The notes: generated from the letters alone by a model not told the origin. A stretch of 64,000 nucleotides of DNA from Marsupella aquatica (GCA_973895155.1 OZ316895.1:20164803-20228802); one strand, 5' to 3'. Numbered from the stretch's first letter, positions 3,411-36,064 are shown. A program made the numbers and translations.

Positions 3411-3785
3411 TAAAAAAAAACTTCCCCCTAATCACACTGCCGGGGTCACCTCTACTCAAAAACTTCCTTGCTCCCGGTCCTATTTTATTTCTTCTTCCCA
3501 CCAACCTTGCTATTGAGTTCTCTAAAAATGGCCCTAAAATAATGGGGAGTCCCCCAAAGGCAGGGCCCTCCTCCCAACATAATTGCAGAACAATTAGGGG
3601 ATAAAAATAAATACAGTTCTTCGGTCACAGGTGATGAAAAAATGGTTATTTACAATGGTTATTTACACTGTGCGACACTCCGCGACCAAGTTATTCGTGA
3701 TTTTATGTGACGGGGACCCCGTCACAGTCTCCATCATCAGACCCCTCCGACGCAATCAATATGGGGGGTACCTGGGGCATCAACA

Positions 3786-4169
3786 AAGTGGTACTGCCGC
3801 CTCCTTCTTGACCTCACCGCCCTTTGAGATTGGTGGAGAACCCTCAAAGCATTCAGCGTCGGACGTAAGGTCAATCACATCGTGAGCCACCTGAGACCTC
3901 TCCACCTTGACCCGAACGATGTCCCTTAGTTGAATGAAAATCAAGTACTCCACGCCATATTCGAGATTCCAAACAACGTCCTCCACTTCAGTATCAAAAT
4001 GAGCAGGCCCATCGTTCAAAGTTCTCACACTCAAAATATGTTTTCTTGTCACCCCAAATCTTCCACACAGGTAATTATCACTAACACGTTTTCTGGTTTC
4101 ATAAATTGACACAAGGATTGTCACAATGTCACCTCTATTCGGACACGTTATTCGAATAATGCGAGACAT
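3786..4169 (-). pseudogene. 5' fragment of the element C MULE transposase, truncated by the LTR insertion
   Basis: MSRIIRITCPNRGDIVTILVSIYETRKRVSDNYLCGRFG aligns with the N-termini at 21401 (STGDIVSIPVSV...YLCGRFDL) and 10801 (TTGDVVVLDV...FLSSRFGL). Confidence 0.75.
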
Positions 4170-4599
4170 TCTAACTCCCCAAAGATAACCGACTACATAA
4201 AATAATGATACATGGTAAAATATAGCTAGATTGAATGGTTGAGGGTTTCTTCTTAATCCAAGTCTCAAACGGAAAGAGCCATCGAGCAGTTATAGGATCC
4301 GTTGGGTATGGATTTTCTTACCGTTCAAGAAACAACAAAACCATCAATTCGGTGGATAGTTACTGTTGAATTAATTTTGTTGGCGTTGTAACCGACGAGG
4401 TAATATAGTAGCGCCAGGCGCTAGCGTTTTCCACATCTGAAAGAGCCCAAAAATGAACAACAAAAGCAAAGATCAACGGCCATTTTGGTTAACATCTTAC
4501 GACAACTACTCATTATGACAACATTTAAGCTGAAATGTATCGGGTTTCCTTGGAAATAGCGTCTTATTTTTGGCAGACGACAATATTACCCTCTTCTAA

Positions 4600-4994
4600 T
4601 ATTAAAATCGATCCATTTGAGCTCTAGTAGAAGTTATCATAATAATAGCGTCAGGAGCTATCATAAAATTGATATAAATGTAAAGATGTAACGGTCATTA
4701 TTTATAGAAACTTCCACATTTTGGGTCCAAACATCTAAGCCATTTTGAAGTGTCTCGTTACTAGCGCCAGGCGCTATTATTGAAATCTACCCATTTAAGC
4801 CTTATTTGAGACTAAAAGAAAAATAGCGCTTGGCACTTTCATAAAATTGATAGAAATAGAAGCCGTTAATTACAGAAACTTTCTCACTTCAGTCCAATCA
4901 TTCGCATGAATTTTTAGTACAATGTTACTAGCGCCAGGCGCTATTATTAAAATCCTTCATTTCAAGATATATTTTAGTCTAGCATAATAATAGC
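4600..4994. repeat. Degenerate tandem repeat (~170-bp unit), each unit carrying two palindromes
   Basis: GTTACTAGCGCCAGGCGCTATTATT at 4757 and 4924; TCATAAAATTGATA at ~4661 and ~4839; AGAAACTT repeated. Confidence 0.7.
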
Positions 4995-5787
4995 GAGGTG
5001 TTTACAAAAGGCAGGAAAACAGGAAACAGGCATTCATAACCGAAACTGGTAACAGTGAAAATGACTGGTAACAGGAAAATTCTAGTCTCAAACTTCGGAG
5101 AAAAAAATTCTGGTAGCACCCGGCGCTGGTAAAAATAGCGCTGAAGGCGAGGTTTTTTTAAAAGACACCAAAAAAACAAACAGGAGTAAATATAAGAAAC
5201 TCGTACCGGTAGGAACTCTCCACGATTATTGCTAGCGTCGGGCGCTGTGAAGAGTCTATAATTTGTACCAATTGCACTCTCGGAGGATATTTAATGAAGG
5301 GGGCTATGAAATGTTCGATCTCTGAACGCTATTTAAGTCAATTATAATTAACCAAAACCTTTTAGTAGCGCCTGGCGCTACTACAGTAATCCCAGTTGAC
5401 AACCATCGTCTATTCCAGCCTCCTCCCGATCAGGGTCTTTCTAGAAGACATCTAGCTGCAAAGATCCATGACTATTCCCGCCAGTTCACCTAATACCACA
5501 AAATCAGGCGGAAAACAAAACATTCATGCAACCACAGCCCAGAAAGAATCCACACCCAAGAACCCTTAGAAAATTGGGAAGCGCCCGGGGCTAGCCAATA
5601 TTGCACCTAAGAACACGTCTTCACAACTCAAACTTCAAGAATCTAAAATAAAAATATAATAGTGACAATATGTTTGAGGAGCGCCTGGCGCTAGTAAAAG
5701 TTGAAAGGGCTTAAAATCAGCCAATTCATCGAAATGGTTACATATTGAAACATTAAATGACGTATTTGAAGAAAACCCCATTGCTAC

Positions 5788-5830
5788 CTATAAACTACCA
5801 GATGTTTCTGATGCGGAGCTTTCAGATCTG
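5788..5830 (-). pseudogene. Displaced last codons of the element B ParB-MTase gene
   Basis: Joining across the TSD restores ...KSTDRSESSASETSGSL*, matching the copy C ending ...SIDRSGNSESESSNLE*. Confidence 0.8.
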
Positions 5831-6160
5831 GAGGTATTCTATTGTGCGAGCAAACAGGAGTTTTGCTAGCGAGGACAGCAGGCTAGCGAGGCAAGTTTGC
5901 GCGTAATCTGAGGGTAGTTAAGGCGCATTCCCAAGTAAGATTGTCAATATATACTGTGAAACAGTTAAGGAAAACGAAAATGCAGATACTTAAATATTCA
6001 CAAACTCAAAAATTGAGATCTTCACTACACTGAACTGAATGAAAGGCATCATCACTGTCAACAAAACCAGGTCAAAAAACCTTTCACAATCCATCTTTAA
6101 TAAAACTTTGGTATGACAAATATCTTCTGGAATGAGATTGCATCTGAAATTGACCATGAG

Positions 6161-9100
6161 TCATTGAGAATCCTCTGATTCCAAATCATCTGAGGAATTA
6201 CTAGGATCGCTACTAGACTCCCTATCAGTCTCCTCAGCCGAACCGTCAACATACTGTGCTACAGTCCCAGCCTCATCATCTATGAACTGAGGGCAGTAAA
6301 GGGCTTTCCGAACACCCCTCACTGACCGCAGACCTTTCCCCTCCCAAGTCAAAACGATGGGCGCTTCATCAACCTCCTTTGCAGTCTTTTCAGCATAGCA
6401 TGGAAGCACAAATCCCTTGTCAGGGGTCACAAGAAAATGATCCTCGATTTCTTTCCGAAGACGGAATCTCTCCTCCGAAAACCAATCCGAACGCCTATCA
6501 CTGAAGAAATCACCAGAATCGGATCAATACTAAACATCCAAAAATTCTACAAACAAAAGAAAAACACCAAATAGGGAGTTCTACATCAAAGGCCAAGTGC
6601 TTTACTCCAGGTCGAATTCATCCTTCTCGTCTGAAGGTCCTCCCTGATCATCTCCTGGGATGGTGAACTCATCATCAGACCCTTCATCTTTGGGATCATC
6701 GTTCTTCGGGTCTACGGCCCCTTTCAACTTCTGGGCATGTCTATCCAACACATTTGCCAAAGTTCTTTGTGCACACAGATGAAGAATGTCTCGATCTTCA
6801 ACACCCACAACAAATCTCCCAGCGTATTCCCCAGCGGCAAAAGCACTTCCATCTCCAACAGTCCAGTCAATGACAATGTCCTTTGGCAAAGTAAGGATCT
6901 TCATTACGGCTTGCATGAACCCAACTGACAATCTATTGGAACCTGCGAAAGCCGCCCTGGGACTGGGATCAGTTTTTGGGTAGCAAACACTCAACATCGA
7001 TTTATGGCGGGCATCCTCCGAGGAAGTCATTGGAACATATCCTGTATGTTTTGGGACTTTTGCCGAGAATTCCACCTTGCAGAAGACATCCATAATGAGA
7101 GTAACCACCTGAATTGAAAACGATAATACGTAAGAAATGGGCACTTTTGGTTAGCGAGCTCGCTAGCAAAAATTGCACAAAAAATATGGAGGATATCTTA
7201 CCTCGATGTCCATATCTGCCTGATACAAAGGAGATGAAAGCAAAACCGAATACTGCCGGACATGTTTAAATTTGTTCTTCTGTTCGACTGCAGAAAAAAT
7301 TTGCCTCATATGGTTATAGTCAGAGCTGTGAAGAACTGCGACATAACCATCATCGGCAAGCATCGGACGCATGACTCCAAAGAAATAATATGGTAATTTC
7401 TCACTCCAAACATTCCACTTCGGGACCTCCCGGTCTGTGACGCTTGTTCGATGACCCGTGGGAAGGAATATGAAACCCAAGTGAGCACCAATTCCAGCGT
7501 AATTTTTTCCGTTGATCATCACGGCGTTTGGGTGTTCGCTCGATTTGCTCATTCCAGACAACCACTGATCCGCATCGCCCATCCAAGGAGGTCTTACTTT
7601 CCTCTGGCTAATTGAGTTTGCAGTTTCCGTGAGATTGCTCTTCGCCAAGAAATGCCTCTCACTGTCCTTCTTAAGACCACACATTCGTGCTACTCCTTGC
7701 GCGACGCATGCTTCCTCCTCATCCGAGTCGGAGAGAATTTGGACATTGCGCTTCCTCTTTAAACGCTTGATTGAACCCAGGTCCACAACAGATTTTGTTG
7801 TGACCTCAACATCAGGAGACTTGGGTTCTTCTCCATCATCCGCCCCACTCTTCAAACTGCCAGAGGCTGCAGCCTTTCTCTTCTCTGAAAAACATGTTAA
7901 TGTCAGACAGGTGACTGAGACAAAATTACTCCGAATGAGGTATGAAAAAAGAGGAGAAAAAGACTTACTTTGCTTCCCAGACAAGACTGATCCATCTTTG
8001 GACGTGTCCTTCACCGGCACTTTCCGAGGTCTCCTCGATCTACTCCGGTCCACAATGGCAGCTACACCAAGAATAGCTTTCTCCATTGCATCACATCCGC
8101 CAGCCTCGGCTTCTGCAGGAGCTAATTTGGACTCTATAATGTACGACTCTGGTATCAAGCCTCGATTTATCATATGAAATGCTGCCTTCTCTGCTGTGTC
8201 AAATGTCACTGCCCATTTGTCTGATTCTAAATACCATGGACAGTGAAGGACTTCCCACTCACTCATCTTCCTTGGAGCCTCCACTCCCTCACATGGGTAC
8301 ATCGAGTACTCTCCATATTTAACAGAGGTTGGATCCTCTTTCACTCCTGCTATCCAAGGCGAGAAGCAAGCAGGATAGGACCACCAATATGTTTTGTCAG
8401 CAACTTCTCTATCCACAAAAAAACGATACGTATATCTCTTCGCCCTCCTCCGAAAAAGTGAGATGTCAATCTTCTCACCCGACTTTGGTGGCCAAATCTG
8501 TTTGAAAAAACGAGATTTCACTCTCGTTTGGAAATCTTCAAAGTCCTCCTCTATGTCAAGGATCAGCGATGGCTTTGTCTTCTCAGACGAAGTAAGGATC
8601 CTTGCATCTGGAACAGTTGGGATCAACTCTGAAATAATCTCAGACATGAGCGAAGAACAAATTGACTCAACCTGCTCCCAAATAGCCCATCGGTGAAGCC
8701 AAAGTTTTGTTTCGCTGTCCGAGAATTGACCAGGGTGGAAGTACTTCTTGCAAAGCTCAGGTCTGCATTGTGCCTCGAGGAGTACACATCTGAGCTGGGG
8801 AGTCAACGATGAGACACCCGTAAATAGCCTCGCACGATCGAGACCACATGACACATTACCCCTTCCTTTATCGTCTGTTCGTTGGGCCTCCTTCCTCTCA
8901 TGTTCGTAGTAGTTGTGCATCTCAACACACTTCTGGAAAAAGTCACCAAACTCAGGATTCAGGAGAGGTCCAATCTTTGGCACCTTCACATTCCAATCTG
9001 CCAGTTGCTCCTTCATCATGTCTTTGACTGCCATGTCTTGCACAGCTTTTGAAAGAGGTTCTCCTTGCGCTTCTTTCAGCTGAAACTTCTTCTTCAAATC

Positions 9101-10125
9101 TTCCGTCTGCGCTGCAATATTAGCAGCAGACAGAATGTACGTGCAGGCATCGAGTGTCATGTTCTTCGAATACCAAGCCGGTTTCCTGATATTTGCCATC
9201 TTCTGCTGGAAAAGTTTGTAGTTGTCTGCATCGATGATATCTTTGTATACAGAAAGGTCATTACTGAGAACCTTGTGGACTCTCTCTGCTTCAAGGACCC
9301 AAGAATTCTCAACGTGACATTGAGTCAACCTGAGCAAAAGAAACAGGTCAGCGAGATCGCTAACAAGAGGAAATGAAAGAATTGTATATACAATTCACAG
9401 CTTGAAGGAAAAGAAACAAACCTATTCAGCGCATGCATTGCCGACTCAATCTGCACGAATGAGTTCTTGTCACCCTTGAAAATTCAACAAACAACTCGAG
9501 GATGATATTTGACATCATGGGGATTCTCATCCGCAAGCTGCATCCATGAGTACAGACGATGATTTCCATCGAAAACACAGAACATTTTGTCTTTCAAAAT
9601 TTTGAAAGCTTCGTGAGAATCACATTCCCTCTCGAATTCTTCATTATGAAGAATCCACATGTCATCCCACGACTCCCGAATCACATCCTCGCACATCTGG
9701 ACAAGGCCATCTTCGCCGGTCATTTGGACGTAAAATCGAGGCGCATCTTTGATGTATCCCTGCGTCCGGAATTCATTCTTGAGTGTCTCGATCGTAGTCG
9801 AGTTAGTTTGTAAGGACCGAACGATCTGCATGTTTCGCATTCTGCAAAGGGGAATCCTCGGAGGAGCGAGCGGGAATCCAAATTCGTCATTTCCAAAAGG
9901 GAAAAGATGGCGATTGATGACAATAGAATAGGGTTCTGAAGCTCCAGGTTGAAACGTAGGATTCACAACATCTACTTGGTTCACCATCTTGGGCCTCCTC
10001 GGTGTTTTCAATCCCGCCTGGAGCGCCTTCTTGTTCACTGTAGACCTGGTCTCCCTTCGGCTTGACTCGACTGACTTGAACGATCCTATTGATGACAAGC
10101 TCTCGGGTGAAGACAATGGCTCCAT
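6161..10125 (-). pseudogene. ParB/Srx-like domain + central domain + beta-class N4/N6 DNA methyltransferase-like protein (element A); 5 predicted exons, one premature stop
   Basis: Motifs: RIPLCRM..VRSL..LKNEF..QGY..FCVFDGNHRLYSW (ParB/Srx-like); GFIFLPTG..RPMLADDGYVAV; FMQAVMKILTLPKDIVIDWTVGDGSAFAAGEYAGRFVVGVE (AdoMet-binding motif X/I). GT-AG introns 9421-9330, 7968-7885, 7201-7109 and 6605-6501 keep the frame. In-frame TGA at 9484-9486. Confidence 0.82.
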
Positions 10126-13100
10126 CAGGGGGTCCGTGAAGTGATAAGGGTATCAACAGGTCAAGGTCGAGGGCGACACGCTTTGCGAACATAAAAACAC
10201 CCGAGAATCGATCTTCCAATCAAAGACAGAATCGTACCCTCGTCTGTTGCTTTCACCTGAATGCTGCGCCCGGTCATGAAAAGAGATACAAATATTCTAT
10301 ACGACTCTTCTCGCAATCATTTTTCAGACAACGTCAGGTATACATGTACTTCCGGAAATACGAACCACCGAACTCACGACTGAAAGAAAAGTATCTAATG
10401 ACAATGAGACAGGTGTCCAGTACTGTACCGTACCGTTGACATGTAGGTACCCGTTGACCAATTCCAACGGATATAAACGGTCACAATGGTCTCTTATGAG
10501 GAAATGTTTTTGCTAGCGACATCGCTAGCCAAAAAATGACCACTAAATACATTAACTCCTGAAGGGTGTTTTGTAAGGATTTGAACAATTTTACTTGGTT
10601 CATTGAGCTAGCGAGATCGCTAGCTTTATCATTCCGCAAATAGAGTCATATAAGACAAAATAACGGTCAGATAATGGGAATAAGAGGCATTTATTAAATA
10701 AATATGTTGAGTCCAACACCTACACAAGCACATTTCCTCATATGTATTTGGAGAAAGAAGAGAGCGAAGTATCTCACATTGTGGATTGCTGTAGACTGTA
10801 ATGTCCAAAACTTCCAGCATGTCTTCATTGGGATCGAAGGTTGTGATCGAGAGAAAGACGACGGGTGATGTTGTTGTTCTGGATGTTCCGGAGAATACTA
10901 TTATCTCTGTCAAGGAGTCTTTTCTCTCATCGAGGTTTGGGCTTTTCAAAGATGATTTCATCTGGAAGTTGTTCGTTCTTTACTCTCGGGATGGATCCAG
11001 AAGTCACGAGGTGTCGGATAATGGTTCAGGAATATTGCCAGAAAGAGCTTGGGACCTAAAGGGTGGTTCAGATGTAGAGCTAGTCTCATGTAAGGATGAC
11101 ATTGCACATATCAATGTTTCCGATCCAGAATCCCCGACTCGACCGTCACCTGCAGTACCAGAAATTATTGACATCTCCCCTGAGAGTGTGGGTAGGGATG
11201 TCTCTTCTGTGTCGACAAAGTCTTCTGAGAAATCCGTTTTTGAAGCAGTGAGTCAAAACGAGTTTCAATCTAAGCCAGTTCTTTATCGAGTTAGTGCATA
11301 TGATGCCTTTCTCAATATTATTGGGTCAAGCGAGTTGGCAAATTTCCGCAGGGGAAACGATTGGAAGGAGATTCAAGTGCAGACTTTGCCCACTTCATAC
11401 AACGGAAACTGCGTTTTTGAGCTTCCTCCGGTGGAAGGTCAATTTCGTCGAGGATATGGTCTTCAGGACATGGATAGGGATAATGACGACTATCCATGGA
11501 CGAGACTTCTCACAACTTCAGCTAATCTCAAACCTCGCAATCACTGGTCTGTGTCAAAAGTCAGATGTGCCGGTGTACTTGAATGCCAAAATCTGGTCTG
11601 TAGAAAGTTGAAGCACACCGGTTCAAAAAATGACTCTTCCTTCCGAGGAAACGGACAATTTACTGAGCCGTTTCATCTTGGTGAGCTTGTGGAGGAAGGA
11701 GGGTTGGTGTGCGGATTCTGTGAGGAGAGGCCTCTCTGCATCCGTGAATGTCCAGCTAAGCTTTTGTACGTCTATCCTAAGCCGTCTCTTGAGTCAAATG
11801 TTGCGAAACATATGTCTCGATTGGCTGTTCACATGGGTTTCCATGACCACGTTGTTTGGAAGGGGAAATCTTGATTGGCAAAAAAGCAGGCGGAGGAGAT
11901 AGTTTCTGGTGTTCATAAAGCGAATCCCGTGTGTACGCCAGGGCGTGTTCTTAACAAGTCTATAGGAAACCTGGTTTCTCTTTTGCATCCAGAGTCTTCT
12001 TCAAAACTATCAAAAGAAGAAGAGAGAGAGATTTGGGAATCGATGAAGGTTGTGTCCACTGTTGAGAAATTCCAGGCCATATTCCGGAGCGTGAAAATGG
12101 ATAACCCAAAAAAGGGTGAGTTGGATTCTCTTCGTGAGATGCAAGCACGGAATAATTTTCCTTATGTTCAGAGGTACCTTTTCCCTGGGCAGGGGAGCAA
12201 GACCGATAGGGCTCATGTCTTCAAAATGAGTACAAATGGCCCAGGTTCTGGTGTCGATATTCTCAGGCAGATGAAGAGTGGAGGTGAGCTGGAAGGAGCA
12301 TGGGTCAGTTCTGATGTAATGCGGAGAATAAGCACTGGGTGGCTGACTTTCAGCGCCCATGTGTACGACCATAATTACAGGTCCCTTTGTACCATCTTCA
12401 CTTGTGAGCTCCGTGCGGAGGACTCCTTATCTCTTGAAACCGCATGGAGATATATGATTGAAGTTGCCTCTGATCATGATGTGCATGACCCACTCATTGG
12501 AGGATTTATTGCCGATAATGCCGAGGCTGGATGGATCGCCATTCGAAATGTTTTTTTTGGAGGTGTCCGTCACCCACAGAAGGAGCACAGTGACGCCTTT
12601 CACTTTGCTCAATCTCTTTGTCGTCACACATTGGAGGGTATTCGGGAAGATCGCCATCGAGAGCACTATAAACTGTGGGAAAGGGAGAGAACAGCACCAA
12701 CATATGTTCAGGCCTACCGTGTTGCTGACGAAATCCATTGTTGGTGGAAGGAAGGAAACTGCTATGCTGGGAAATTGAAGTCTCTCCAAGGATGGTTATC
12801 TTGGTGGGTCGTGAGGTGGAGGCAGTGGGGGAACTTCATCCGCATTGTAAGTGTCCAATTTCATTTCTCTTTGACGTCATTGTTTTTGCTAGCGACCTCG
12901 CTAGCATATCAGGTCTGACTGGGGACTACTTTTTGCAGACGCAAACCGCAATGGAGTCAGCCTTGATGCCAAATTGTACTGGAGCGGAATCAGTCCATGC
13001 ATCCATGAGATCCTGCCAAATGAAGAAACTAGTGGGATTGATTGAAGCATGTGAGGTGGACCAGAATCGTGCTGCGGGGCAAATTGCTGCTTTTACTGCC

Positions 13101-14950
13101 TACAGTGAAGGTGTTCACAGAGGCCAGGGGCCGACCATTTTTGAATTAGCATATAGGAACGCCGATGCTATGGGATCCATGGATGCTTACGAAAAGGCAG
13201 CAAATCTTTTGCTTGAGTCTTCAGCTAAGTATGAATTCTATAGAACAGTTCCATTACATGGCGATCTCCGAACAACATCCACGAAGAGGAAAGGGAAAGC
13301 TTCAGCTGTAATCCACGAGAATGACTCCCACAGACATGACAAGGTGTCACGCACAACAGCTTCTCCTTCAGGACTAAAAAGGCGTAATCTCTATCCTGAA
13401 TTTCGCTTCGTCAATGTTTCGGAGACTTCTGCGGACCCAGAAGTAGCAAATAATACAACTTCGGCAACACCTATCGGAGGTTGTTCTGCTAGAGTTATCC
13501 ATATTTCAGATGATGATGGTGATGATGCAAGTCGTAATGTCAATGATACCGTGAAGATGGGGACTCAACCTCAGTGTGATGTCGGGGATGACCATCGGGA
13601 TGCCCCCCAAAGGATCCCTTCCATCCGAGAGGTTGATGTTCCTTATGGGACCTGGCATCTCAGGCGGAGCGGTAGAGGTGCTGGACCTGTTTGCAACGGG
13701 TCGGTTGACCGAAGCGTTTTTGGAAGAGATGAATGTAGAAATCTCATCAAGGAGACTGGATGTAAGTCCGCGCAAGGGGGAATTGTTGGAGTCGCCATTC
13801 ATGGGTTGCGATTATCGTCTCCACATCGCCAGTTGTTGTACTTTTGTCCTAATAATAAGTGTCACAAGAGCCGAGGACACAGAACTCTAGCTCAACTACC
13901 CCCCCCACCCGAGTCGCTCAAGGTTCAGCGTGGGACTTGCCTCTCCCATCCCGAGATAGAGTTTCTGCTGGGATTAGGATTCCAGATCAGTGGACTCTCC
14001 TATGTGGATGCAAATCAAGTTGGAGAGTTCCCGTCCCCCAATCGGGTCAACCTACGAATTGATGTTAACTCATTCCCCGAACGAATTGATCTAACTAATG
14101 TGGACCGTCGGTTGAAAACTCGAAATGGTAAGGGTGCAAGACAGCGTTTCAGCAATACTCCAGAGTTGCTCAAGCGCATCGTTTCCGCTACACAAGAATA
14201 CATGAGAGTTGTCGGAAATGAGAAGGTAACTACCGGAAATGGATGGGGTTGGAGATACTTGATCGCCACTCACGAGACTGATTCACAAGTTCCGCACACA
14301 TATTGGGTGCAAATCTGTTGTTTCCCTTCGTGTTCTTGTGAAGACTTTTATAAGAGGCATACACGAGGGAAACCATACATGTCTTGTAAACATCTGCTGT
14401 GGGTGTATTTAAACAAGTTTTCACTCAACCTAGAGAAGGACGACCTTGTCAAACAGCCAATTCTGACTGTTGGGGAAGTGAGGAGTTTAATTCCGTTACA
14501 GATAGGGGACTAGTCGTTTATTGGAGATGCTAATTATAGGGTGGTGGGATGGATTACTCGAGTTTGTGGTTTCACAAATATCAATTTGTTTTCACCGAGT
14601 GAATCATAATGTTAGTGAGGTCCACAATGGTAACTTTTATGGTGTTTGAGTTTTCTGTTTACGGTTAGCAATCTCTCTAGTCTTAGGAAGTCTGCTGCAT
14701 CCTGACAGAAACATCCTACTTTCATACGTGTTAATCTATCGACAAGTTTCTATAGAGTTCACGGTTTGATCATTAAAATGACGCCAGTTTTTGGCTAGCG
14801 AGATCGCTAGTCTGATCAACGGTATCTAGGACAGGATGTGACAGGATGTTTAGGGTTTAGGGAGGGAAGTTTCCCCTGAAGTTGTTGTGGTAATACTCGA
14901 TCGAATTGATTTTCAAAGATGAACACAGTTCTATACTAGCGATATCGCTA
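7152..14950. repeat. Dispersed 14-bp palindrome TAGCGA-NN-TCGCTA (type A), confined to element A
   Basis: Copies start at 7152 (intron), 9349 (intron, 1 mismatch), 10514, 10609, 12890 (intron), 14796 and 14937. Half-sites or degenerate copies lie near both TIRs (5867, 16111). Confidence 0.9.
10801..14513 (+). pseudogene. MULE/Mutator-type transposase with GCM/WRKY-like Zn domain, DDE core and SWIM finger (element A); one premature stop, one intron
   Basis: Zn domain: WTRL...RCAGVLECQN..C...CPAK...HMGFHDH. DDE core: WVSSDVM, FIADNAEAGWIAIRNVF, DAFH, CTGAESVH. SWIM: CSCEDF...CKHL. In-frame TGA at 11872-11874; intron 12847-12938 (GTAAGT...TTGCAG). Confidence 0.88.
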
Positions 14951-15136
14951 GTCTGGGAAAGGTCCAACAGTGACTTCAAAATAAAAGTACTATGTGCGAA
15001 ATGGCATTCCGGAGAAACACATAGAAATGAAAGGACCACCCAAACTTTACTTCTCATACATATTGAAAGTACATGAGGACATGCGGTTCGCTTGTAACTA
15101 CAAAAATTTCAGTAAATCCACAACCTGACTCTACCC

Positions 15137-15565
15137 TCAGGGGCTGGACGCCTTCCATGCATCGGAGTCAGTGTCTGACTCTGAATCGTAATCCGAAGAG
15201 GCGAGGCGTTCCTCGGTCCAGTAGTCATAGATCTCCCTGTCAATCCAATACTGATCCTCTTCTGCGAGCCTCTTCCTCTTCGATACAACCTCGCGCTGTG
15301 TGGTATCCACCTTTGGCTTCGGTGGAGACTTTGCTGCTGGAATTAACTTTGGAGGAGTAGGTGTTCTCCTCAATGATGATGACGATCCAACAGATTGACC
15401 GAGTTCGGTTGGGACACTGCTGCCTGAGGAGACCTTCATAGTCTCTGCATCGGGTTTCTGCTTCGGAGGAGAGTCATCTTCAACCGGGCCATCTGTCGCC
15501 GGGTTGTAACGACGGATCTCAAGTCGCCATTTCCACTGAGGAGGATTTCTTGGAACACCAGACAT
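15137..15565 (-). CDS. Small third ORF of element A (Pro/Ser/Lys-rich, acidic tail), unknown function
   Basis: About 140 codons from MSGVPRNPPQWKWR, lying between the transposase and the right TIR. The N-terminal RNPP..W.R motif is echoed at 35035. Confidence 0.45.
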   Translation of the reverse strand: MSGVPRNPPQWKWRLEIRRYNPATDGPVEDDSPPKQKPDAETMKVSSGSSVPTELGQSVGSSSSLRRTPTPPKLIPAAKSPPKPKVDTTQREVVSKRKRLAEEDQYWIDREIYDYWTEERLASSDYDSESDTDSDAWKASSP

Positions 15566-16321
15566 TTCTTTGCACTTACGAAACCCAAACAATGATTAAA
15601 GAGAACAGGATTCAACAAATGGAAACATTATTCACGGTGGAATACGATGAATATCATGCCTTGTCGGAGAGTTCTTCCCTTAAAACAGCTCAAAGAATAG
15701 ACCCGTGCTTACCTGAACTAGATCTGGAGAGTGTTGAGAACTTGGAACACTGATAGCAGTTCCGAATGAAAGAGATCAAGTCGGAGGTGGTGGAAGTGAT
15801 CGGGAGAATGATTTGGAAGACTGGTGGTTTTTGGGCTAGCGGATTTGTTTAAGTGGACGGTTCGACGCCTTGGATTCGAGTCTGGTTCGAACGATAAGTG
15901 TCCCGTTCACTTGCAAGTGACTTAATTAGTGTCCAAACGGCCTTAATCCTCCTTTCCTTGGTAGTAATGACACGTTGATTCTTTTCACGCGGGAATCGCG
16001 AAGTACTTTTTTGTTATTACTCTTCCTCAGGTGGGAATTTTCACATGTGGAAGCCTGTACGTGGAGACCGTACCTCGTATGAGTGGCTCAATGTGTTGGC
16101 ATCATTAGACTAGCGATTTCGATGGCCTGAAGATATGTCATTTTGATCTATTGCATTCACGGGACTAGAATCGTCCATGGGTAGCCGTCTATATTTATTG
16201 ATCGAACAGGGTCTCCATGCTAGCGAGGAATATTCCAGACCTTTTTTGGGCCCCAATACAAGGTGACATCTTGCCCGTGCGAGCAAAAATTCTACTGTTT
16301 GCTCGCACGTTACAATTACCC

Positions 16322-19300
16322 TCAGATCTGTCCGTGGACTTGGCTTCATCATCAATGTACTTGCTTCGGGAAACATCATCTATATAAGGGTTCCTCATGA
16401 ACTTCTTGTCTGCTCCCCTATGAAGACGTAGACCTTTTGTTTCCCAACAAAGAGTTCTAATTTTGTCAACCCTCCTAGCGGCATTTTCAGCGTATGAGGG
16501 CAAAACAAACGGCTTCTCAGGAGTGACAATTACATTCCTAGCTAGTCTCCTCCGGAGTTGGAAACGCTTCCTCAGATTCCATTCTGACCTGATCCAGTAA
16601 AATGGAAAAACATATGAGTTTAGGAGATAAGAGAGCAAGAACCCAGAATTGTCAACAACACTTGAAAGGATAAAGAAGCTTACTGGAAGAACATTACTCG
16701 TTTGAGTCTTCGCTCTTCTCCAAAGAAATTTCCTCCTGTGTTTTCTCTGTGTCATCTCCGACGTCTCCAGAGGTACCTTCCTCTTCGTCAGAATCAAAAT
16801 TGAGAACAGATCGGAGCCTATCTTTCTTTTTGCGACCACTTAAATTGGTCGCGGGAGGAGGTAGTATTGGAACATGCCTGGGATCAAGAAGTTCTAAGAA
16901 AACCCTTGATGCGGTCTCAACAAACTCACGCCTATTTTCCAACCCAATCACGAAACGACCAGAAAAATCATCAGCAATGAATGTGCTTCCTGAACCTACA
17001 GTCCAGTCAAGGACAATATCTCCAGGAAGAGTAAAAAGCTCTATCACCGATTGCATAAAACCAACCAAAAGACAGGCGTTCCCAGCAAAATCCAACTCCG
17101 AGCAATGATCTGTCTTCAAGGTTGGGAGCCCAATCAAGTTAGAGATCGAAGGATCTTCACTTATTGATAGAGGCTTAAACCTTGGATCCTTTGGTACCTT
17201 TCCTTTTGAAGAAGTCCGACAAAATATGTCTAGCCTAAGGGTAAATACCTGCACGCATCGCACACGTTTGGCTCAAATTATCAACCAATGGGTAATGTTT
17301 TGAGAACTACAGCAAAGACTAAATTAGCGTCAGGCACTAACAATAAACAAGAGATGCAATGATCTGTACCTGAATATCGGTCTTTGCTCTGTACATGAGC
17401 ATAGACATGACGACATTGTGAGAATTGACACAATGGAACTTTTTTGACTGTTGGCATGCTAAAATGACCTGCGAGACCTGGTCATGGTCATCTGAATACA
17501 AGATCGCAAGCATGCCATCATCAGAAAGGAAAGGGTCCATCGCTTTGAAGAAAGAACTGGGAACTGTGTGGTCTGGTACATTCCACTTTCGAACCCGACA
17601 GTCCCTAAGCGTAGGTTTAAGTCCAGTAGGAAGATAGATGAATCCTGCATTGACACCAAACGATCTTTCTTTTCCTCCTCTGATTACTCCCTTTACTCGG
17701 GAACCCAACTTGATTAAGTCCTTTCCCCATTTCTCTGCATCAGTCACCCAATCTGGTTTCGCTACTTTGTTGAAAGCAATATCAATAAATTCTTGGATAC
17801 TTGTTTCCACATGCAATGCCTAGAAGATTTGCTCTTGAAGGTTCCCACATCTCTCTGAACACCAGTTCCAACGGCATCATCTCGGGAAGATTCTCTAGCT
17901 TGAATTGCCCTTTTCTTCTTCTTCTTCTTTGTACTGGTTGCATCAAGAGGGACGATCTCTTTCGCTTTGTCAATTGAAGTTACTAGGTCTGCCTGGGCAC
18001 CGGTATTGGCTTTGAAAGTCTCTGAAGTGGCATCTACTTTTGTTTCGTCGGTTGCAGCGTCAGACTTTCTCCCACCTAAAGGAAAAAGAGCAAAATTGAT
18101 TCAATGCTGAATAATAGCGCCAGACGCTGTCCAAACCAATTGAAAAAACAAACCAATAGACATAGTCATATAGTAGCGCCTGGCGCTAACCAAAATGTGA
18201 AGCTACAAGTTGAATGACAACTTACGTTTTTTGGCGGACCGCGTTGAGGTACTCGGTGCAGCAACTTTAGTTTTGCTTTGGCTCTGGGTTTGTGACTTCG
18301 ATCAACATGAACAACCGTAGTTTTGCACACCGATTGCAATTCTGCCGTCGACTTGCTCACATCACCTTCGATTCCCTGCTTCATGTCGGACACAAACTTG
18401 GGAGGGACTTGAGACTTTGAAAGCTTATGAAATGCGTCTTTCTCAATGTCTCCAAATGGAGAGTCCCATCTATCGATGTCCAAATACCAAGGACAATGAA
18501 TTCTCTCCCATTCTGATAGTTTCCTTGGTGGAAGACACCCTTCAGCGGGATACATTGAATACACGTCGGCCAGTATGTCTCCTTCGGGAACAACGATCCA
18601 CTTTTGGAAAGTAGCAGGGTATGCCCAAAAGTAATCTGGCTTCACAATCTCCATATGCATGAAGAAATGGTATAGGTATCGTTTGGCCCTCTTCTGATTC
18701 TTGAGGGTGTAGTCAGCCTTGTCGGGATACTTGGAAGGCCACATTGTATTAAAAAACTTGCCTTTCACAGCATCCCCAAATTTCTTGAAGTCATTTGAGA
18801 CTATTTCAATAAGCGATTCAATCGACTTACACTCCCACTCCTGTAACCAATTGGCGGGGACTATATCACTGATCTGGCGTAGGGAGGTTTGCAGCAAACC
18901 AATAGCGATTCCCTCCACAGTGTTCCAAGTTTGCCAGGTATGGCACCATTGCTTCACTGGATCATCATTAATGCTCTGTGGATGGAAGAATTGTTTTTCA
19001 GCTCCGGTGTCCTATGGGCAACCAGAAGGGTACTCCTCAGCTTGGGATCGAGGGCAGAGACAGCGGTAAACAATCTTGCTCGATCCATTGTACAAACAAC
19101 TGCATCCGGCTTCTTCTCTCTCTTATTCTTCTCTGTGAGGGGGTACATCTCAGCACATGTCCGCATGAAATCCTCAAAAGTAGGGCTTAACAGAGGAGTG
19201 ATTTTTGACACCTTTATCGCCCAATCCTTTGTTGCCTCCTTCATCATTGCTGCATGTCTTTTTGAAATCTCTACGGAAGACCAAGGTGTACCTTGAGTGG

Positions 19301-20400
19301 TAGCATGTTCCAGATCCATCTTAAACTGTCTAGAATAAGACTTGATCTTATTCTCACACAAGATGTATAGAAGCGCTTCTTGAGGCATTTTTTTTGTATA
19401 CCACGATCCCTTCCGTGTTTTCAGCATGATCTGCCCAAACTTCTTGAAGTTTGCAGCGTCAATGATAGACTTGTAGTAATCGAGTTCATTTGAGAGAATT
19501 CGGTTGATACGGTCTGCATCAAGTATCCAAGAGGGTTCAACCACTGCCTGCCCAAGCCTGAAAATGAGAGAGGGAGTCAGTAGCGCACGACGATAGTGAA
19601 ACACTATGACCATAGATTAGAATAGAAATATATTGGAAGAGACACTTATTGGTTAACAGTGTGCATCGCCGCCTCAATCTCGATCAAGGACCCCTTTTCT
19701 CCCTTGAATATTGTGCACTGGATGCGATGATGGTATTTCACATCATCCGGATTCTTCTTCGTGATGATGGACCATGCGTAGAGTCGATGGTTTCCATCAA
19801 ACATAGAAAACATCTTATCCTGCAAGACGGAGAAGTCAAGGTCGGCAGCACATTCCGCCTCAAACTTTTCATTCTCTATGACCCAAATTGCATCCTAGGA
19901 AGCACGAATCTCTGGCGTGTAGATCTGGACTTCACCATTGGAATCTGTTGGTTGAACGTAAAACAGCATGCCGATCTTAGAATTGTATCCAGTGCTCTGA
20001 AAGGAGTCTTTCAGCTTCTCTATCGAAGGACTTCCCTTCTGTAATGTCCGCACTACTTCCATATGAAGTAGTCGGCACATTGTAATCCTTGGCGGATCCT
20101 TGTCATGTCCTCAGAAATCTTTTCCAAACGACATAATGTGTTTGGAGATCACATCGTAAACAGTCAGCAACGTCTCTCCGAAGTCCTCCACAGTAAACGA
20201 ATCAGAATCATCCATCTTTCCTCTCTTGCTATTTGGGAATGATATAGTGGGTTGTGCTCAGGGGCTCGCCAAGCAGTGGATCGAGTCACTCGACGACTAT
20301 ACACAAATCCTAAAAATGAGCACTCAGATGTTTGCAAGGGAACGACCTCTCTGTGTCCGTTTCCACTAAAGCATTGAGAGGAGGATAAGACAGGGTCCAT
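16322..20400 (-). pseudogene. ParB/Srx + methyltransferase-like gene of element B (frameshifts and stops; 3' end split by element A)
   Basis: Homologous blocks: DGNHR (~19790), LGQAVVEPSWILDA, MDRARLFT, YSMYPAEG, HCPWYLD, AGFIYLPTG, TLPGDIVLDWTVGSGSTF..GRFVIGLE. Intron positions match copy A. Confidence 0.85.
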
Positions 20401-21019
20401 TGCTTGCACAAGGGCAAAGGAAGCACTGACAACCACCGCGCTCTTTCCGTACCGCGAACGGCAAAAACCCGTCACACAGCTTCGATTGTACTGTACTTAA
20501 CATGGGAAATAAGAAGAATCTAGAGCACAGAGCATGACATATACGCTAAGGAAACTGAACTCCTGGCCTGGATCTATGACACATATCGTTATCTTATTCG
20601 ACAACACATAAGGGGATCGATGTATTGAGGGTCACGCAACCTATAGTTACCGTTGAATATGACCGTTGAAAGGAAAACCTGAGAATATATAGAATTAATT
20701 TTTACTCACCAAATAGTAGCGCCCGACGCTAGTAATTTCCAAGGCCTAAAATCTTTAATTTTTATGTCAGTTGGGAATTCAATATAGAGCCATAAGAGGC
20801 GCTAATATGCCATTACTTTCCCCAAAATCCGGTTTTCTCGTATTTCTGATACAAAAGAAAACTAGCGCCCGACGCTAGCAAAAAAAGAAGTCTTTTCATC
20901 CTTTTGAAGCCTCATACTTGTAGTTTTTACCATTGTATACGTTCATAATATGAATGATATCAATATTAGCGTGTGGCGCTAATCATCCAAGGTCTCCGTT
21001 AGGAATTTGTTTTATGTCA

Positions 21020-21175
21020 TTTGCTTTTATTAGCGCCTGGCCTTACACATAAATTGACGTTACATGGACCCCAACCTTTTGGATTGTTATGAATAGCATC
21101 AAGCGCTGAACATAAATTGACTCTGCATGGACCTCTACTTTTGCAATGTTTTTAATAGCGCCTGGCGCTATTCAT
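21020..21175. repeat. Short tandem repeat (~63-bp unit) carrying palindromes
   Basis: TAGC.. motif + ACATAAATTGAC..CATGGACC repeated at 21031 and 21094, with a third palindrome at 21156. Confidence 0.65.
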
Positions 21176-22268
21176 CATCTGATATTTCTAGAACAAAAGG
21201 GTTCTTCCTAAATGACGTTTATCGTTAATGCCGTTGATCGTAAATGACGTTGATATAACGACAAAATACATTTATGGTGTCAGAGGATTGTCTTATTATA
21301 ACGGCTTTAGGGAACTGTTAGTCAGGATCAATGATAGTCCTCATCGGTGGAATTTTGATTCATAATTTTCCTGCGCTCATTCGCTTCTAAGGCTTCTGTG
21401 ATGTCTCAGTCAATCGTAGTTACCCATATGTCCACCGGTGACATTGTTTCCATTCCAGTGTCTGTGACCGAAAGGTACAGGCAAATAAGTGAGGTTTATC
21501 TTTGTGGAAGGTTTGATTTGCGCATGAATGACATAGAGGCAATCGTTCAGGAGGGAACGGAAGCCAATGACTTCGAATCTGTCGTAAAGGCGTAAAGGCG
21601 TAAACGTAAAGTCATAACTCCGTAAAATCATAGAGTCATAAACCCATAATGTTTTACCTGTAATGGCATCTCCTCCTTTTACGGTGGTGCCCCTTTGAAA
21701 GTGTCTCTCCCTTGATTGTTTACAACCAACTTTGGCTCGTCCTTCCTTATCTGAGTCTTCTATTTTGATTTTGCAATATTGTTCTAGCTAATTCTTGTAT
21801 GGAGATAAGGATATACTCTTCTCCAGTAACTCTACCATTTAACTTTAAAATAACCAGATGCAAAACTCCTCCTCCCCACCAGGTAATACTTAACCAATGA
21901 ACACCCCTCCTCCTCTTAGGGACAGTACCCATGTTTGAACATACCAATTATGCAAATTCCTTACTCTCAAAGTGCCTAAAGACCTGATCAGAGGCATTTC
22001 AATTATTTTGCCAAATTGCTTATTCAAAGTTAGAATCAAGGTTTTAATTTGGGGAAATCCCCCCTTCTGTTGTCCTCTTTTATGCTGAGGTCCGGTAGTT
22101 ATTCAACAAATTTTCTAGAGTGTCCAGGGCATCCACCCAAGGGTGTTCAACAATGTGTAATTTTTCCAACACCTCCTTGATTCTCAGTTCTTCTTCTCCA
22201 GTAACCCAGTTACTAATTTGACCATTCTTGCTTATTACAAATTCTAAATCATGTTCTTCCTTAATGGG

Positions 22269-22940
22269 CTACAACTTATATTCCTCATCATCAATCCAAA
22301 CTCTCTTAAAGACTATTACATCAGTCAATTTAGAACATTGAGGGAGGGTGGAGGTCCATGTAAAGGATGCTCTTTCTGTACTTGAATCCCTCCATTTTAA
22401 CAAAGCCCATCCACTTCTGGCTTGCCATTTACAAGTGTCAACCAGCTCCCTTCTATTGGAGGTCATAACCGGTCTTTCCTCCCGAAGTATTAAATTGGGA
22501 TTATCCTGATAAAACTCTATTAAAACATAATCAAGTTGGTTCCTCCATAAGGGATCCCCCTTTAATCTTGCCAATGCTTTCCTTAATTGATACTCAAGTT
22601 CCTCCTCCAATATTTCCTCCTTAATGTCATGTTCTTTTAGTAAGGGGGAAATAAAATTGGCATCAAATTCATCATCTTGAGTGGCTTCAATCAATTCCAG
22701 TCTTCCATCTATGGCTCTTCTGAAAACAAATACACAATCATACAGAATATTGGTGTCCCACGAGTCAACCTTCACCAATTCGCCACCCCAAAAGTAGCTT
22801 CCTCCTCCTTGGTTGGACGCTTGCCTTCTCAAAATAGTTGTTCTATCTCGTGCAGTGGCATTGATAATCGTGTGTGTTTGATTATCCCTAGACCTAATTA
22901 AGGCTCTCTCTCTTTTCTGAGGCCTGCTCTTTCTTACCAT
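22269..22940 (-). CDS. Unknown ORF just downstream of the PBS (retroelement 5' ORF)
   Basis: 223-codon ORF with no recognisable motif. Confidence 0.35.
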   Translation of the reverse strand: MVRKSRPQKRERALIRSRDNQTHTIINATARDRTTILRRQASNQGGGSYFWGGELVKVDSWDTNILYDCVFVFRRAIDGRLELIEATQDDEFDANFISPLLKEHDIKEEILEEELEYQLRKALARLKGDPLWRNQLDYVLIEFYQDNPNLILREERPVMTSNRRELVDTCKWQARSGWALLKWRDSSTERASFTWTSTLPQCSKLTDVIVFKRVWIDDEEYKL

Positions 22941-23230
22941 TATCTTTCTCTAAAAAACATTCCCTTGCTAAGCACCACTTAATCTTTCCTACTTGGCCTT
23001 AGCTTTCCTCTTTCTTTCCAAAATTGTGGCAGGATTTTCTCCTACAATCCTTTCCCTAAATGCCTCTAGTGCATTTTTCACTGTATAAGGTTGAATTTCT
23101 AGCCTTGGAATTGCCCATTCTCCATTAGGTTCCATGGTGGCAATCACCCTTATTTTATTCCATCATCTTTACTGAACTCAAACCTTCTTTTGGCATTCAC
23201 TACCTGTACTTCAAACCTTCCTTGATTTGT

Positions 23231-23248
23231 TCCCCGGCAGCGGTGCCA
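23231..23248 (-). promoter_or_regulatory. Primer-binding site TGGCACCGCTGCCGGGGA
   Basis: Close to the TGGCGCCGTTGCCGGGGA (tRNA-Asp type) PBS of Athila/Tat-related gypsy elements. Confidence 0.7.
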
Positions 23249-23743
23249 AAAATCTCATGTAGTTTGAGAGGTGACATTGTTCCAGATTCTCTGTTTCTCA
23301 GCTAATGAACTCGTTGAAACAAGGGTAACCTTGGGCTCTCGAGGAAGGTAAGCGTTATGGGGAGAAGTAGATTTCTTACTCTGCATGAGAAAAGAAACCA
23401 CAAAATCTAGGGCATAAGCTGCCAAATTTCCAAAATATGCTAGAACTAAATCTGGATCCTCCACCTCTACATCACCCTGAAGTAGCATCACAGCAAGAAT
23501 GGGCCGGAAATAGAGAGAGTTAGTCCAGAACTCATCAAATTGTGCCATCTCCAATCTGGAAGTTCCAAAACACCTGAGGTCGAAGATATAACTGGCCTCT
23601 GTCTTCTTGAGATAGTAGTATTTCCAGAACTCTCCAACCGGTGGTCTGTTGGCCTGCATAATCTTACAGGTCTCCACATACCTGTGCACTTGGGACTCTG
23701 GATGTCTCGGGTATCTACTCTCGATGGTGGCATTCCGGGGTGT

Positions 23744-25351
23744 CTAAGTAGATGAGGTGACAACTGCTACTAAGTTTGGATTGGATCTTAAGGCAGTATC
23801 AACATCTTCAAATCCCTGCCTTGGGGATGACTCAAGAGAATTATCATAAGATCTATAAGTTTCACCATCTGAGGGTGGATCAGAGTCTTCAGGTAGATCC
23901 TCTCTGTCGTAAGGGTGCTCATATTGTGACCGATTGTAGGTGGGTCCTTCTATGGGTTCATAGTTGGAATTAGGGTTGTAAGGTTGCGAACCTGGGCTAG
24001 GAGTGGGACTAGCAGTTGGACATTGTTGGATCAAGTTGCAGACCACGGATGCTATCTGTCGAGGTTCACACTGAAGTATTTCTAGCAAGCCATCCACAAT
24101 GGCCACACAGCTGGTACTATCTGCTACTGGAACAGATTCGCTTGTTTCTAGGGGAGGGGGCTGTACAGTGACAGGAGTACAGATCATAAACTCCATTGGT
24201 GCTGGTTCTCTTGGGGAAGAGGTCATTCTGACAGGACTTAGCTGATCATGAAATGGTGATCTCAAACTAACAGCCTCCATTCTCAAATGATTAACAACAT
24301 CATATAGTCCATCATCACTGCAACTGAGGAGAGATGTCAACTTATCAATAAGCTGCTTATTCAACTCTGCCTTTGAAGGAGTGGACCTGGTGGTCACATG
24401 AGGAGTAGCATCAGTTGGTGTAGCAACATCGTCTTGTTGATGAATGTTCCTTACTCCTTCAACTTCTAGTGGATCTGCACCTATGGTTCGACTGGGAGAA
24501 GGCTCATCACTCATTGGATGGTAATCGACTTCCTTGCTATGCATAGGAGAATGTGTAGGGACTTCTAATGAAGTATCCTCCATAGGAACATCAGCATTGT
24601 CCTCAACATTCTGATCATTCAAATTCAATGGGGTGACATGTACAATGTCCTCCATGGGAATTTCTTCTTCAATACCCAGGTCAATCAGGAGTAACCCCCT
24701 CTCTGTCTCTTCCTCTAGATATAAATAGTCATGGGTATAATAGAGCTGAGAGAGATAATTCTGTAAGCAAGTGGTCCTCCCTGCTTCCAAGCTCCTTACT
24801 TGATCCTTCATTACATTAAACAGAAGTAGGGCCCAATTTACTTTTATAGCTCCACTATGAGCAGCTACAATGGTGTTAGCCAAGGCCACAGGACAAAGAG
24901 TTGGCTTTTTTGGATGAAGAATGGGTACCAAAAATTCCATGAGTACCCTCAATTCAGGATAAGTACATTGGGACAAGTTCCAACCATTCTTGGCATTTCG
25001 AGTTCCTGATAAGTATGGAGTAGATAAGTCCTGCTTCTTGGAATATAACGCCTCTCCTTCTGACGGGCATCCAAAGGCGTAAGCAATTTGCTCAACAGTC
25101 CACAGGCTGGGGTGAGCTCGAATTGTTCGCCTGAATTCAATCGGGATGATAGTCCCCTTCACAAAATCCTGCAAGTAGGAGTCGCGCTCGATATTCCAGG
25201 GGATCCTGAGCAAGCGCTCCAATCCTAACTGCTGTAAAGAGTCTTGTAAATTAGAAAGACTATCAGGCGCTCGTGGTATACGAGCTGCCACTACTTTTGA
25301 GACTGCTAGAGCTTCAATTTGATACTGTTCCTCAGCACCCAGGTTCGCCAT
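23744..25351 (-). CDS. Retroelement accessory protein homologous to the LTR-borne ORF
   Basis: LGLERLLRIPW..LQDFV..IAYAFGCP..KNGWNLSQCTYPELRVLMEFL aligns with SGLEAFVRLPW..LLEFV..IAEVFGLP..KNGFFRNTCTNPHIGEMIDFL of the 42687 ORF. Confidence 0.65.
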   Translation of the reverse strand: MANLGAEEQYQIEALAVSKVVAARIPRAPDSLSNLQDSLQQLGLERLLRIPWNIERDSYLQDFVKGTIIPIEFRRTIRAHPSLWTVEQIAYAFGCPSEGEALYSKKQDLSTPYLSGTRNAKNGWNLSQCTYPELRVLMEFLVPILHPKKPTLCPVALANTIVAAHSGAIKVNWALLLFNVMKDQVRSLEAGRTTCLQNYLSQLYYTHDYLYLEEETERGLLLIDLGIEEEIPMEDIVHVTPLNLNDQNVEDNADVPMEDTSLEVPTHSPMHSKEVDYHPMSDEPSPSRTIGADPLEVEGVRNIHQQDDVATPTDATPHVTTRSTPSKAELNKQLIDKLTSLLSCSDDGLYDVVNHLRMEAVSLRSPFHDQLSPVRMTSSPREPAPMEFMICTPVTVQPPPLETSESVPVADSTSCVAIVDGLLEILQCEPRQIASVVCNLIQQCPTASPTPSPGSQPYNPNSNYEPIEGPTYNRSQYEHPYDREDLPEDSDPPSDGETYRSYDNSLESSPRQGFEDVDTALRSNPNLVAVVTSST

Positions 25352-34573: not shown

Positions 34574-34819
34574 GTTTAGTGTGAATTTCTAAGGTTTTCT
34601 TTGGAACCTTGTACTAGCGCCCGACGCTATTAAATTGGATGTTCGGATCTGAGCCTTTAAAGGAGATAGACGCACCGGAAGTCTCTTTCCTGAGTGCATA
34701 TTTGTGCAGATATCAGAAATGCATGTACTCGTACAGTTGTACGGTGAATAATTATACCTTCAATCTGTACATATTTTTGTTTGTGGATGATATGATCGTT
34801 TGGACTCTCTCAAAGTGTA

Positions 34820-35000
34820 GTGTTTGTTCAACTTCGGGTTTGTTCAACTTCGTGTTTGTTCAACCCTAAACGCATTTCTCCCTTTCGTTTCTGTGAGGCG
34901 CCGACTCACCTCTTCCCTTTGTTTTGTTTGTGCACCGCCCAGACTCACCTCTTCCCTTCATTTCGTTTCTGCTCTGCCCGGACTCACCTCTTCTCTTCTC
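34820..35000 (+). repeat. Two short tandem arrays (GTTTGTTCAAC-containing 16-mer x3; ~40-bp GACTCACCTCTTC unit x3)
   Basis: Directly visible upstream of the ATG at 35035. Confidence 0.8.
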
Positions 35001-35034
35001 CCTGAGTTTTGCATACGTTGTTTCCATCGACTCA

Positions 35035-35959: not shown

Positions 35960-36064
35960 CCCCTTAAGCTTGATCCGATGGATTTGGTCTTACCGAGCCA
36001 ACCAATTTTGAATGTCGGAGAACTCCAGTTCATCGTAGGAAGGGAGAATCTGCATGGTTTATAG
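35960..36064 (+). pseudogene. Orphan copy of the transposase C-terminal tail
   Basis: SQPILNVGELQFIVGRENLHGL* versus element B SQPILTVGEVRLILERENAHGL*. Confidence 0.7.

Follow-up and report, generated by a model that had tools for sequence, protein, structure and literature searches.

Transposon-encoded, sequence-specific escape from silencing has so far been shown mainly in flowering-plant models, namely VANC, TnpA and AtMu1. In Arabidopsis, VANC21 and VANC6 bind different short motifs, which lie in the non-coding parts of VANDAL elements (PMC5735166, PMC10398659), and the AtMu1 transposase, in the accessible part of that report, peaks at the terminal inverted repeats (TIRs; 10.64898/2026.08.24.746577). 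How a handful of short sites can shield an entire element, and how specificity shifts, are open questions in the field. Here we describe a 64,000-nucleotide stretch of the liverwort Marsupella aquatica (GCA_973895155.1 OZ316895.1:20164803-20228802; hereafter the window) which contains three nested Mutator-like element (MULE) DNA transposons, A (5831..16321), B (4995..29951) and C (3780..36346), each with a transposase gene, a divergent accessory gene and dispersed copies of a short palindrome that changes type at the boundaries of A. We posit, with a probability of roughly 0.45, that the accessory protein binds the palindrome of its own family and shields that family from silencing, or activates it in trans.

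The locus resembles VANDAL21/VANC21 and VANDAL6/VANC6 in combining a MULE with an accessory gene and a family-specific non-coding motif that is amplified by local duplication. It differs in that VANC motifs, as far as the available text describes them, are tandemly repeated words of 8-9 nt without palindromic symmetry, whereas the motif here is a 14-15-bp inverted repeat in which spacer length is part of the code, and in that the VANC accessory protein is unrelated to the one encoded here, which joins a predicted ParB/Srx-like, a helical and a methyltransferase-like domain. Spm TnpA and the AtMu1 regulators likewise provide transposon-encoded, sequence-specific activation of cognate copies through family motifs, an activation that is predicted for the present elements; according to the sections consulted, however, they bind termini and derive from transposases (10.64898/2026.08.24.746577), whereas here the copies lie inside the elements and in introns, and the domains of the candidate reader are of prokaryote type. 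By analogy, the elements plausibly work like VANDAL/VANC yet would not be members of that group, nor would they form a ParABS system.

Exact copies of TAGCGA-NN-TCGCTA number six (starts 7152, 10514, 10609, 12890, 14796 and 14937), every one within element A, and all 10 exact copies of TAGCGC-CWG-GCGCTA lie outside 5831-16321. With one mismatch allowed within the ten arm bases, A holds seven copies with a four-base spacer (N4; TAGCG-N4-CGCTA) and none with a five-base spacer (N5), and B and C together have 29 of the N5 form but none of the N4 form, which, with the A boundaries being exact, bears out the claim of the preliminary description that the motif type switches at those boundaries. The N5 copies start at 5233, 5366, 5679, 17325, 18115, 18174, 19581, 20717, 20863, 20967, 21156, 27507, 27692, 29353 and 29503 in B (15 copies) and at 4409, 4646, 4762, 4929, 29956, 31145, 32635, 33441, 33503, 34615, 35531, 35754, 35767 and 36139 in C (14 copies). 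Of the 15 spacings tried between 0 and 14, exact arms occur at 4 (7 copies) and 5 (18 copies) and nowhere else, each element uses a single spacer length, and the scan allowing one mismatch found no copy in 36340-64000 or in the insert inside B. A chance origin is rejected, as first-order Markov simulations of region 3700-36400 (200 runs) gave on average 0.0 and 0.005 exact copies, and the same palindrome words rank top in each element when 7-mers are counted de novo in non-coding DNA. The Fisher p value of the N4/N5 partition (1e-7) is descriptive only, because copies within one element are not independent.

The further claim that copies outside A are odd-spaced and CCWGG-centred stood in part. 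All B and C copies are N5, but an exact CCWGG centre is present in only 15/29 of them (centre base T in 12, A in 9, C in 6 and G in 2), and an even-spaced copy of non-A type (spacer GCGC) at 24-37, outside and upstream of the three elements, breaks the strict partition. Because the centre takes any base, the N5 consensus is TAGCGCC-N-GGCGCTA, and CCWGG as a fixed methyltransferase target is rejected on the same counts. The palindrome is also rejected as a TIR core, since the element ends bear a different word. Lone CTAGCGAGG half-sites, all on the + strand, lie close to both A ends at 5866, 5883 and 16220. TGACG-containing words, presumably bZIP-like sites, were noted near several palindromes at 12874, 14781 and 21057-21254, the B promoter having a 16-bp tandem array.

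The seven A copies are found in intron 3 (7152..7165) and intron 1 (9349..9362, with one mismatch) of the accessory gene, between the two divergent genes (10514..10527 and 10609..10622), in the transposase intron (12890..12903) and downstream of the transposase (14796..14809 and 14937..14950). Across the elements, 35/36 copies fall in non-coding DNA, which makes up 31% of the elements against 69% coding (p~6e-17, with approximate exon bounds), an anatomy that fits the analogy with VANC21/VANC6 proposed in the preliminary description. Palindromes are concentrated near the divergent promoter and within introns, not at element ends; 10/14 inferred introns of the window contain a copy, introns 1 and 3 of the accessory gene do so in all three elements and intron 4 in none, and the transposase intron does so in both A and B, that of C having been lost. 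A third type was recovered from an independent 2-kb metagenome contig (L001), the 1 locus obtained from 131 pattern hits, whose transposase is 50% identical to that of A and 51% to that of B. In the same transposase intron as in A and B, it carries three copies of TAGCG-C[CT]GG-CGCTA, an N4 form with ATTGC/GCAAT flanks; because L001 joins the spacing of A to the half-site of B, spacer and half-site vary independently. The locus search returned none among viral contigs (0/101) or prokaryote genomes (0/7).

Retention of the consensus was seen in other copies of the B promoter, on contigs from 4 runs (2 studies) and among 40 of 87 difference rows. These copies restore the consensus at 9/10 positions where the window copy deviates, and differ at 0/74 consensus positions compared with 31/411 positions outside (Fisher p 0.008); one of the outside changes falls in a degenerate half-site at 20802 and departs from the consensus. 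This retention, together with the non-coding placement, the matching introns and the third type in an independent locus, supports a family-specific code under selection. New palindrome copies appear to arise by local duplication, which is visible as 167-178-bp units in C and as 40-nt shared flanks in A, and perhaps also by arm-to-arm copying. L001 contains a perfect 29+29-nt inverted repeat (1172-1231, a 60-bp palindrome) centred on one motif copy, which suggests either that arm-to-arm template switching extends or creates palindromes or that this is a local assembly artefact.

Element A (10,491 bp) sits in the last exon of the B accessory gene and is flanked by the 9-bp target duplication TCAGATCTG at 5822-5830 and 16322-16330; its empty site, a joint of 5821 to 16322 with 9 shared letters, occurs in 4/4 public runs. 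Its left (5831..5860, + strand) and right (16292..16321, - strand) TIRs are identical at 23/30 positions and hold the core AAACAG[GT]A at 5852 and 16293. Element B encloses A, has ends that are 22/40 identical and is flanked by ATAATAGC at 4987-4994 and 29952-29959, a duplication of 8 bp, or 9 counting a shared G. Element C is outermost, its left part being cut at ~3780 and its true left end lying beyond the window; its right end has the same core at 36311. The duplications and the short, imperfect TIRs of A and B agree with the 8-10-bp duplications and TIRs starting with G of Mutator elements, and all three are MULEs. The terminal word AAACAG[GT]A is common to the ends of A, B and C, unlike the palindrome, and the A-B and A-C nucleotide matches detected all fall within coding DNA. 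Each element has two divergent intron-containing genes, all now disrupted by stops or frameshifts. The insertion point of B is the left arm of a C palindrome copy, in the third unit of the 167-178-bp repeat (4987-4994 / 29952-29970), possibly a hint of motif-directed insertion (n=1); the A insertion site is not a motif.

The accessory gene of A (6161..10125, - strand) has five inferred exons, with splice sites inferred from sequence, and one premature TGA in exon 1. It encodes a predicted ParB/Srx-like domain with the box DGNHR, a helical domain and a beta-class methyltransferase-like domain whose motif IV reads FLPT. The B gene (5800..20475, - strand) is frameshifted and split by A, and the C gene (30366..34570, + strand) is frameshifted. 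Pieces of these genes are 52-74% identical between B and C, 33-49% between A and B and 28-48% between A and C, and B and C form a clade with support 100/100, so the greater divergence of the A protein, which the preliminary description had noticed, is confirmed. A profile search returned 148 relatives; named relatives among the 28 clusters looked up come from the liverworts Riccia sorocarpa and Calypogeia fissa, which by itself would make a liverwort origin of the window most likely, and a full-length Riccia protein of 1207 aa (P0166) has the domain order of the window exons. Identity in the middle domain among related accessory proteins ranges from 34 to 74%. VANC proteins carry the domains DUF1985/DUF287, which were not matched by window pieces or full-length homologues, their sole relevant Pfam family being N6_N4_Mtase.

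The structure model of a homologue (P0040; mean pLDDT 70, residues ~310-700 mostly >85) makes a ParB/Srx fold probable for the N-terminal domain. Residues 133-309 align with PadC at Z 4.8 (rmsd 3.5 over 100 residues) and with other ParB/Srx chains, namely KorB (Z 4.6), Srx (4.1) and Pnob8 ParB (3.9), over an rmsd range of 3.4-4.1; Srx (prob 0.3-0.6, E>=1), ParB and Noc are among the non-significant Foldseek rows, and the Pfam ParB family did not match the accessory protein. The GxxR box (Box II) is retained as DGNHR in all of A, B and C, and GNHR is found in 11/17 rows covering the column (alignment A9); we follow the Box II definition of ParB/Srx domains in the available text of 10.1101/2025.10.10.680097. 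For the helical domain (~400 aa), generic helical bundles were the sole fold matches, and a PDB sequence search with the ParB-helical profile gave nothing relevant. Bacterial ParB, Noc and KorB together with the ParB-N6N4-methyltransferase fusions of bacteria and phages, as described in the sections available (10.1101/2025.10.10.680097), resemble the accessory protein in its probable ParB/Srx-like N-terminal domain with GxxR and its N6/N4 methyltransferase-like fusion. The bacterial parS/NBS sites are palindromic, as are the sites here. The present protein differs from the bacterial fusions in being eukaryotic, intron-containing and located within a MULE, without a ParA or a helix-turn-helix match, with a helical domain of ~400 aa and with motif IV lost. 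The ParA family is absent among the 36 window open reading frames (ORFs) scanned with Pfam, and plasmid-type incompatibility is rejected on this ground; the likening to plasmid Par incompatibility groups in the preliminary description is loose, no ParA or segregation role being evident.

For residues 130-710 of the same homologue, which correspond to window 8000-10125, the top Atlas match is to DUF3723 clusters (0.97, 199/256 features, DUF3723 on 51% of members). DUF3723 (PF12520) is described, in the text available, as conserved cargo of fungal Starships with unknown function (PMC9156397), so that the top match of the ParB and helical part is likewise carried by eukaryotic mobile elements; unlike the Starship proteins, no family member scanned has a Pfam DUF3723 match. 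We treat this match as a lead only, and no paper in the literature searched names DUF3723 together with ParB.

The C-terminal domain is, by sequence, a beta-class amino-methyltransferase with the motif order IV...I and motif I near the C-terminus. Pfam N6_N4_Mtase matches the B accessory gene above the cut-off (16697-17272, E 6e-8), profile matches include DpnA (E 1e-4) and CcrM (E 1.4e-4), hhalign gives 96.8% to phage enzymes over the C-terminal 64 columns only, and 25/26 matches of the domain come from Riccia. The SAM-binding motif I and the next acidic residue are kept. Motif IV reads DLPY/DIPY/DPPY in 3/3 phage enzymes, (F/Y)LPT in A, B, C and a homologue (P0182), and D[LM][PS][ST], without the aromatic residue, in 16 Riccia rows; of the other rows, one from Riccia is misaligned and the rest do not cover the column. 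The catalytic (D/N/S)PP(Y/F/W) is not seen in A, B, C or these Riccia homologues, and A, B and C have also lost the lysine of TQKP. The register of motif IV comes from the multiple alignment and not from structure, because the model of this domain is poor (pLDDT 33). The domain is likely inactive and, because the catalytic motif is missing, unlikely to write a mark. Prokaryote-type amino-methyltransferase folds are found elsewhere in plant-lineage genomes, namely in Marchantia DN4MT1 and in the ParB-HTH-fused Dam of chlorophytes, a fusion also described from chytrids (PMC4738411). DN4MT1 retains TSPPY, unlike the domain here, the chlorophyte enzyme is a Dam-clade methyltransferase fused to a ParB HTH, and the sections available present neither of the two as cargo of a MULE. 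Methyltransferase cargo was not found in the accessible text of the MULE surveys PMC6446971 and PMC12973397, the latter also being without the term ParB. No description of the element family surfaced in the literature searched, a scope that leaves aside repeat databases (Repbase/Dfam), supplements and most subscription papers; proteins of this kind may figure in the supplement of PMC4738411.

The transposase of A (10801..14513, + strand, two exons) has a Cys/His N-terminal domain, a DDE core and a SWIM-like end (SWIM match E 0.006, below the cut-off), and one premature TGA. That of B (21397..29278, + strand) is disrupted by stops and by an insert of ~4.2 kb that contains no motif copy. The N-terminus of the C transposase (3780..4175, - strand) was identified by tblastn, with 50% identity over 38 aa to B 21401-21514 and no match to A at E<=1e-3; the remainder was lost behind a probable long terminal repeat (LTR) insertion. 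Seven homologues are 43-59% identical, and D..D..DxFH, which we take to be the catalytic triad, is conserved in 9 sequences. The top Atlas matches for a homologue (P0002) carry PF10551 MULE (0.94, 170 features), with 10/10 of the best 10 sharing family or clan. A direct Pfam scan of the transposase gave no MULE match and a PDB sequence search with its profile nothing relevant; a GCM-like reading of the N-terminus got no match. In the transposase tree, A, B and L001 form nearly a star (A+B 81/83).

How the favoured reading would work can be set out in steps. Because the arms are inverted and the spacer is fixed, the reader is expected to be two-fold symmetric, that is dimeric, and because the motif switches at element boundaries it is expected to be encoded by the element. 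A sequence-specific protein would read the palindrome, and this reader would be the accessory protein rather than the transposase, a choice we favour because the common end core AAACAG[GT]A better suits the transposase. Docked as a dimer, the accessory protein would act in trans, as VANC does, to prevent the silencing of CG/CHG-rich promoter and intron DNA, and half-site and spacer would have shifted together with the protein, such that A ignores B and C and vice versa. From three motif types in four elements we infer that such self/non-self recognition may have arisen by co-evolution of protein and site. A bolder proposal, which we consider unlikely, is that liverwort Mutator elements recruited a prokaryotic ParB-methyltransferase fusion as a ParB/parS-like machine, in which a nucleotide-gated dimer would load at family palindromes and spread along the element, the dead methyltransferase domain would shield cytosines, and specificity would lie in half-site and spacer; the same ParB-helical module might be Starship DUF3723.

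Several observations weigh against the accessory protein as a VANC-like reader. CpG depletion outside the motifs is mild (o/e 0.58-0.84), with no sign of strong methylation pressure. No VANC homology was seen in the Pfam scans of window pieces and full-length homologues; VANC sequences were not aligned directly. The ParB/Srx matches are weak (Z<5) and tied with unrelated helical bundles, Foldseek gave no match at E<=0.001, and the helical middle domain has no helix-turn-helix match in either fold library, ParB matches ending at ~309. The pairing of motif and protein rests on 4 elements and 3 motif types, and the B-promoter test covers less than half of the difference rows and B only, with short contigs from other motif sites possibly inflating consensus depth. 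Finally, the transposase fits the motif types equally well on phylogeny, since both genes split B and C from A, and in the available text of 10.64898/2026.08.24.746577 the AtMu1 transposase, itself of a MULE, activates cognate copies. Congruence of motif type with the gene trees, which the preliminary description had put forward as a check, is thus seen for both genes (in C, from the transposase N-terminus), and for that reason cannot separate the accessory gene from the transposase as reader.

The transposase could accordingly be the reader, its N-terminal Cys/His domain recognising the palindromes and auto-activating or auto-regulating its family. AtMu1 provides the precedent, its transposase alone hypomethylating and activating cognate copies, the transposase N-terminus here also places C with B, and the L001 motif adjoins the transposase gene, the accessory gene not being on the 2-kb contig. 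In the same partly accessible report, however, AtMu1 binding is located at TIRs (10.64898/2026.08.24.746577), and the TIRs here lack the palindrome and bear a separate common core; the accessory gene, moreover, would have no role. A different possibility keeps the accessory protein as reader and assigns it to the mechanics of transposition, such as loading, spreading, compacting a 10-kb element, pairing short TIRs or steering insertion, like MURB or TnpA helpers. The short and imperfect TIRs of A and B, the GxxR box retained in A, B and C, the landing of B in a motif copy of C and a MURA-MURB interaction reported in the accessible part of PMC12973397 agree with it, but copies gather at the divergent promoter and in introns instead of at ends, and the single insertion into a motif is anecdotal beside an A insertion site that is not one. 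We are doubtful of this mechanical role, and slightly more so of the transposase as reader.

Less probable than either is recognition of the motifs by a host factor, a role for them as hairpins in RNA or DNA, or a neutral origin through local duplication and template switching. Hairpin folding at z -2.0 to -4.5 in 5/5 copies tested, the duplicated units of C, the shared flanks of A and the 60-bp palindrome of L001 would be expected under such explanations, yet the arms are identical in all 39 copies (<=1 mismatch), where structure alone would permit other stems. Spacer length is moreover constant per element and the consensus is retained, copies are missing from the B insert and from 27.6 kb of flanking DNA, and a switch at element boundaries would be surprising for a host factor. 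That the methyltransferase is active and labels the motif centre as self by 4mC or 6mA seems very improbable: the intact motif I with its following acidic residue, the Pfam match of B and a beta-class 4mC enzyme in Marchantia (10.1101/2021.02.12.428880, as far as available) lend it something, but the replacement of motif IV in window and Riccia proteins, the missing TQKP lysine in A, B and C and the variable motif centre all oppose it.

The elements offer a natural series of related proteins, each accompanied by a clean palindrome, and since the palindromes differ in a single base of the spacer or of the half-site, cross-binding is directly testable. Should the ParB-like domain load and spread, a fold known from bacterial chromosome segregation would have found a use in eukaryotic chromatin, and there would possibly be a handle on the unexplained Starship gene DUF3723.

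Other features of the window were noted in passing. In run X3, summed contig depth at 6000-14500 (A) is far above that of B or C, hinting that the A family has expanded greatly or recently in the organism of that run, contig depth not being a copy number. Element A has a third, low-complexity ORF (15137..15565, - strand) without a homologue in B or C, and C has one near its end (35035-35560), also of low complexity and without homology to that of A. The 4.2-kb insert in the B transposase (~21582-25790) bears CGTAAA(CC/GG) 8-mer arrays in direct orientation at both ends; its minus strand has two ORFs (636 and 223 aa) that match no Pfam family, and it is an unclassified mobile element. Finally, 42314-64000 is a Ty3/gypsy-type retroelement region encoding gag, reverse transcriptase (RT), RNase H and integrase; it includes a stretch duplicated at a distance of 10,851 bp, and two long ORFs (1113 and 1199 aa) are of coiled-coil type.

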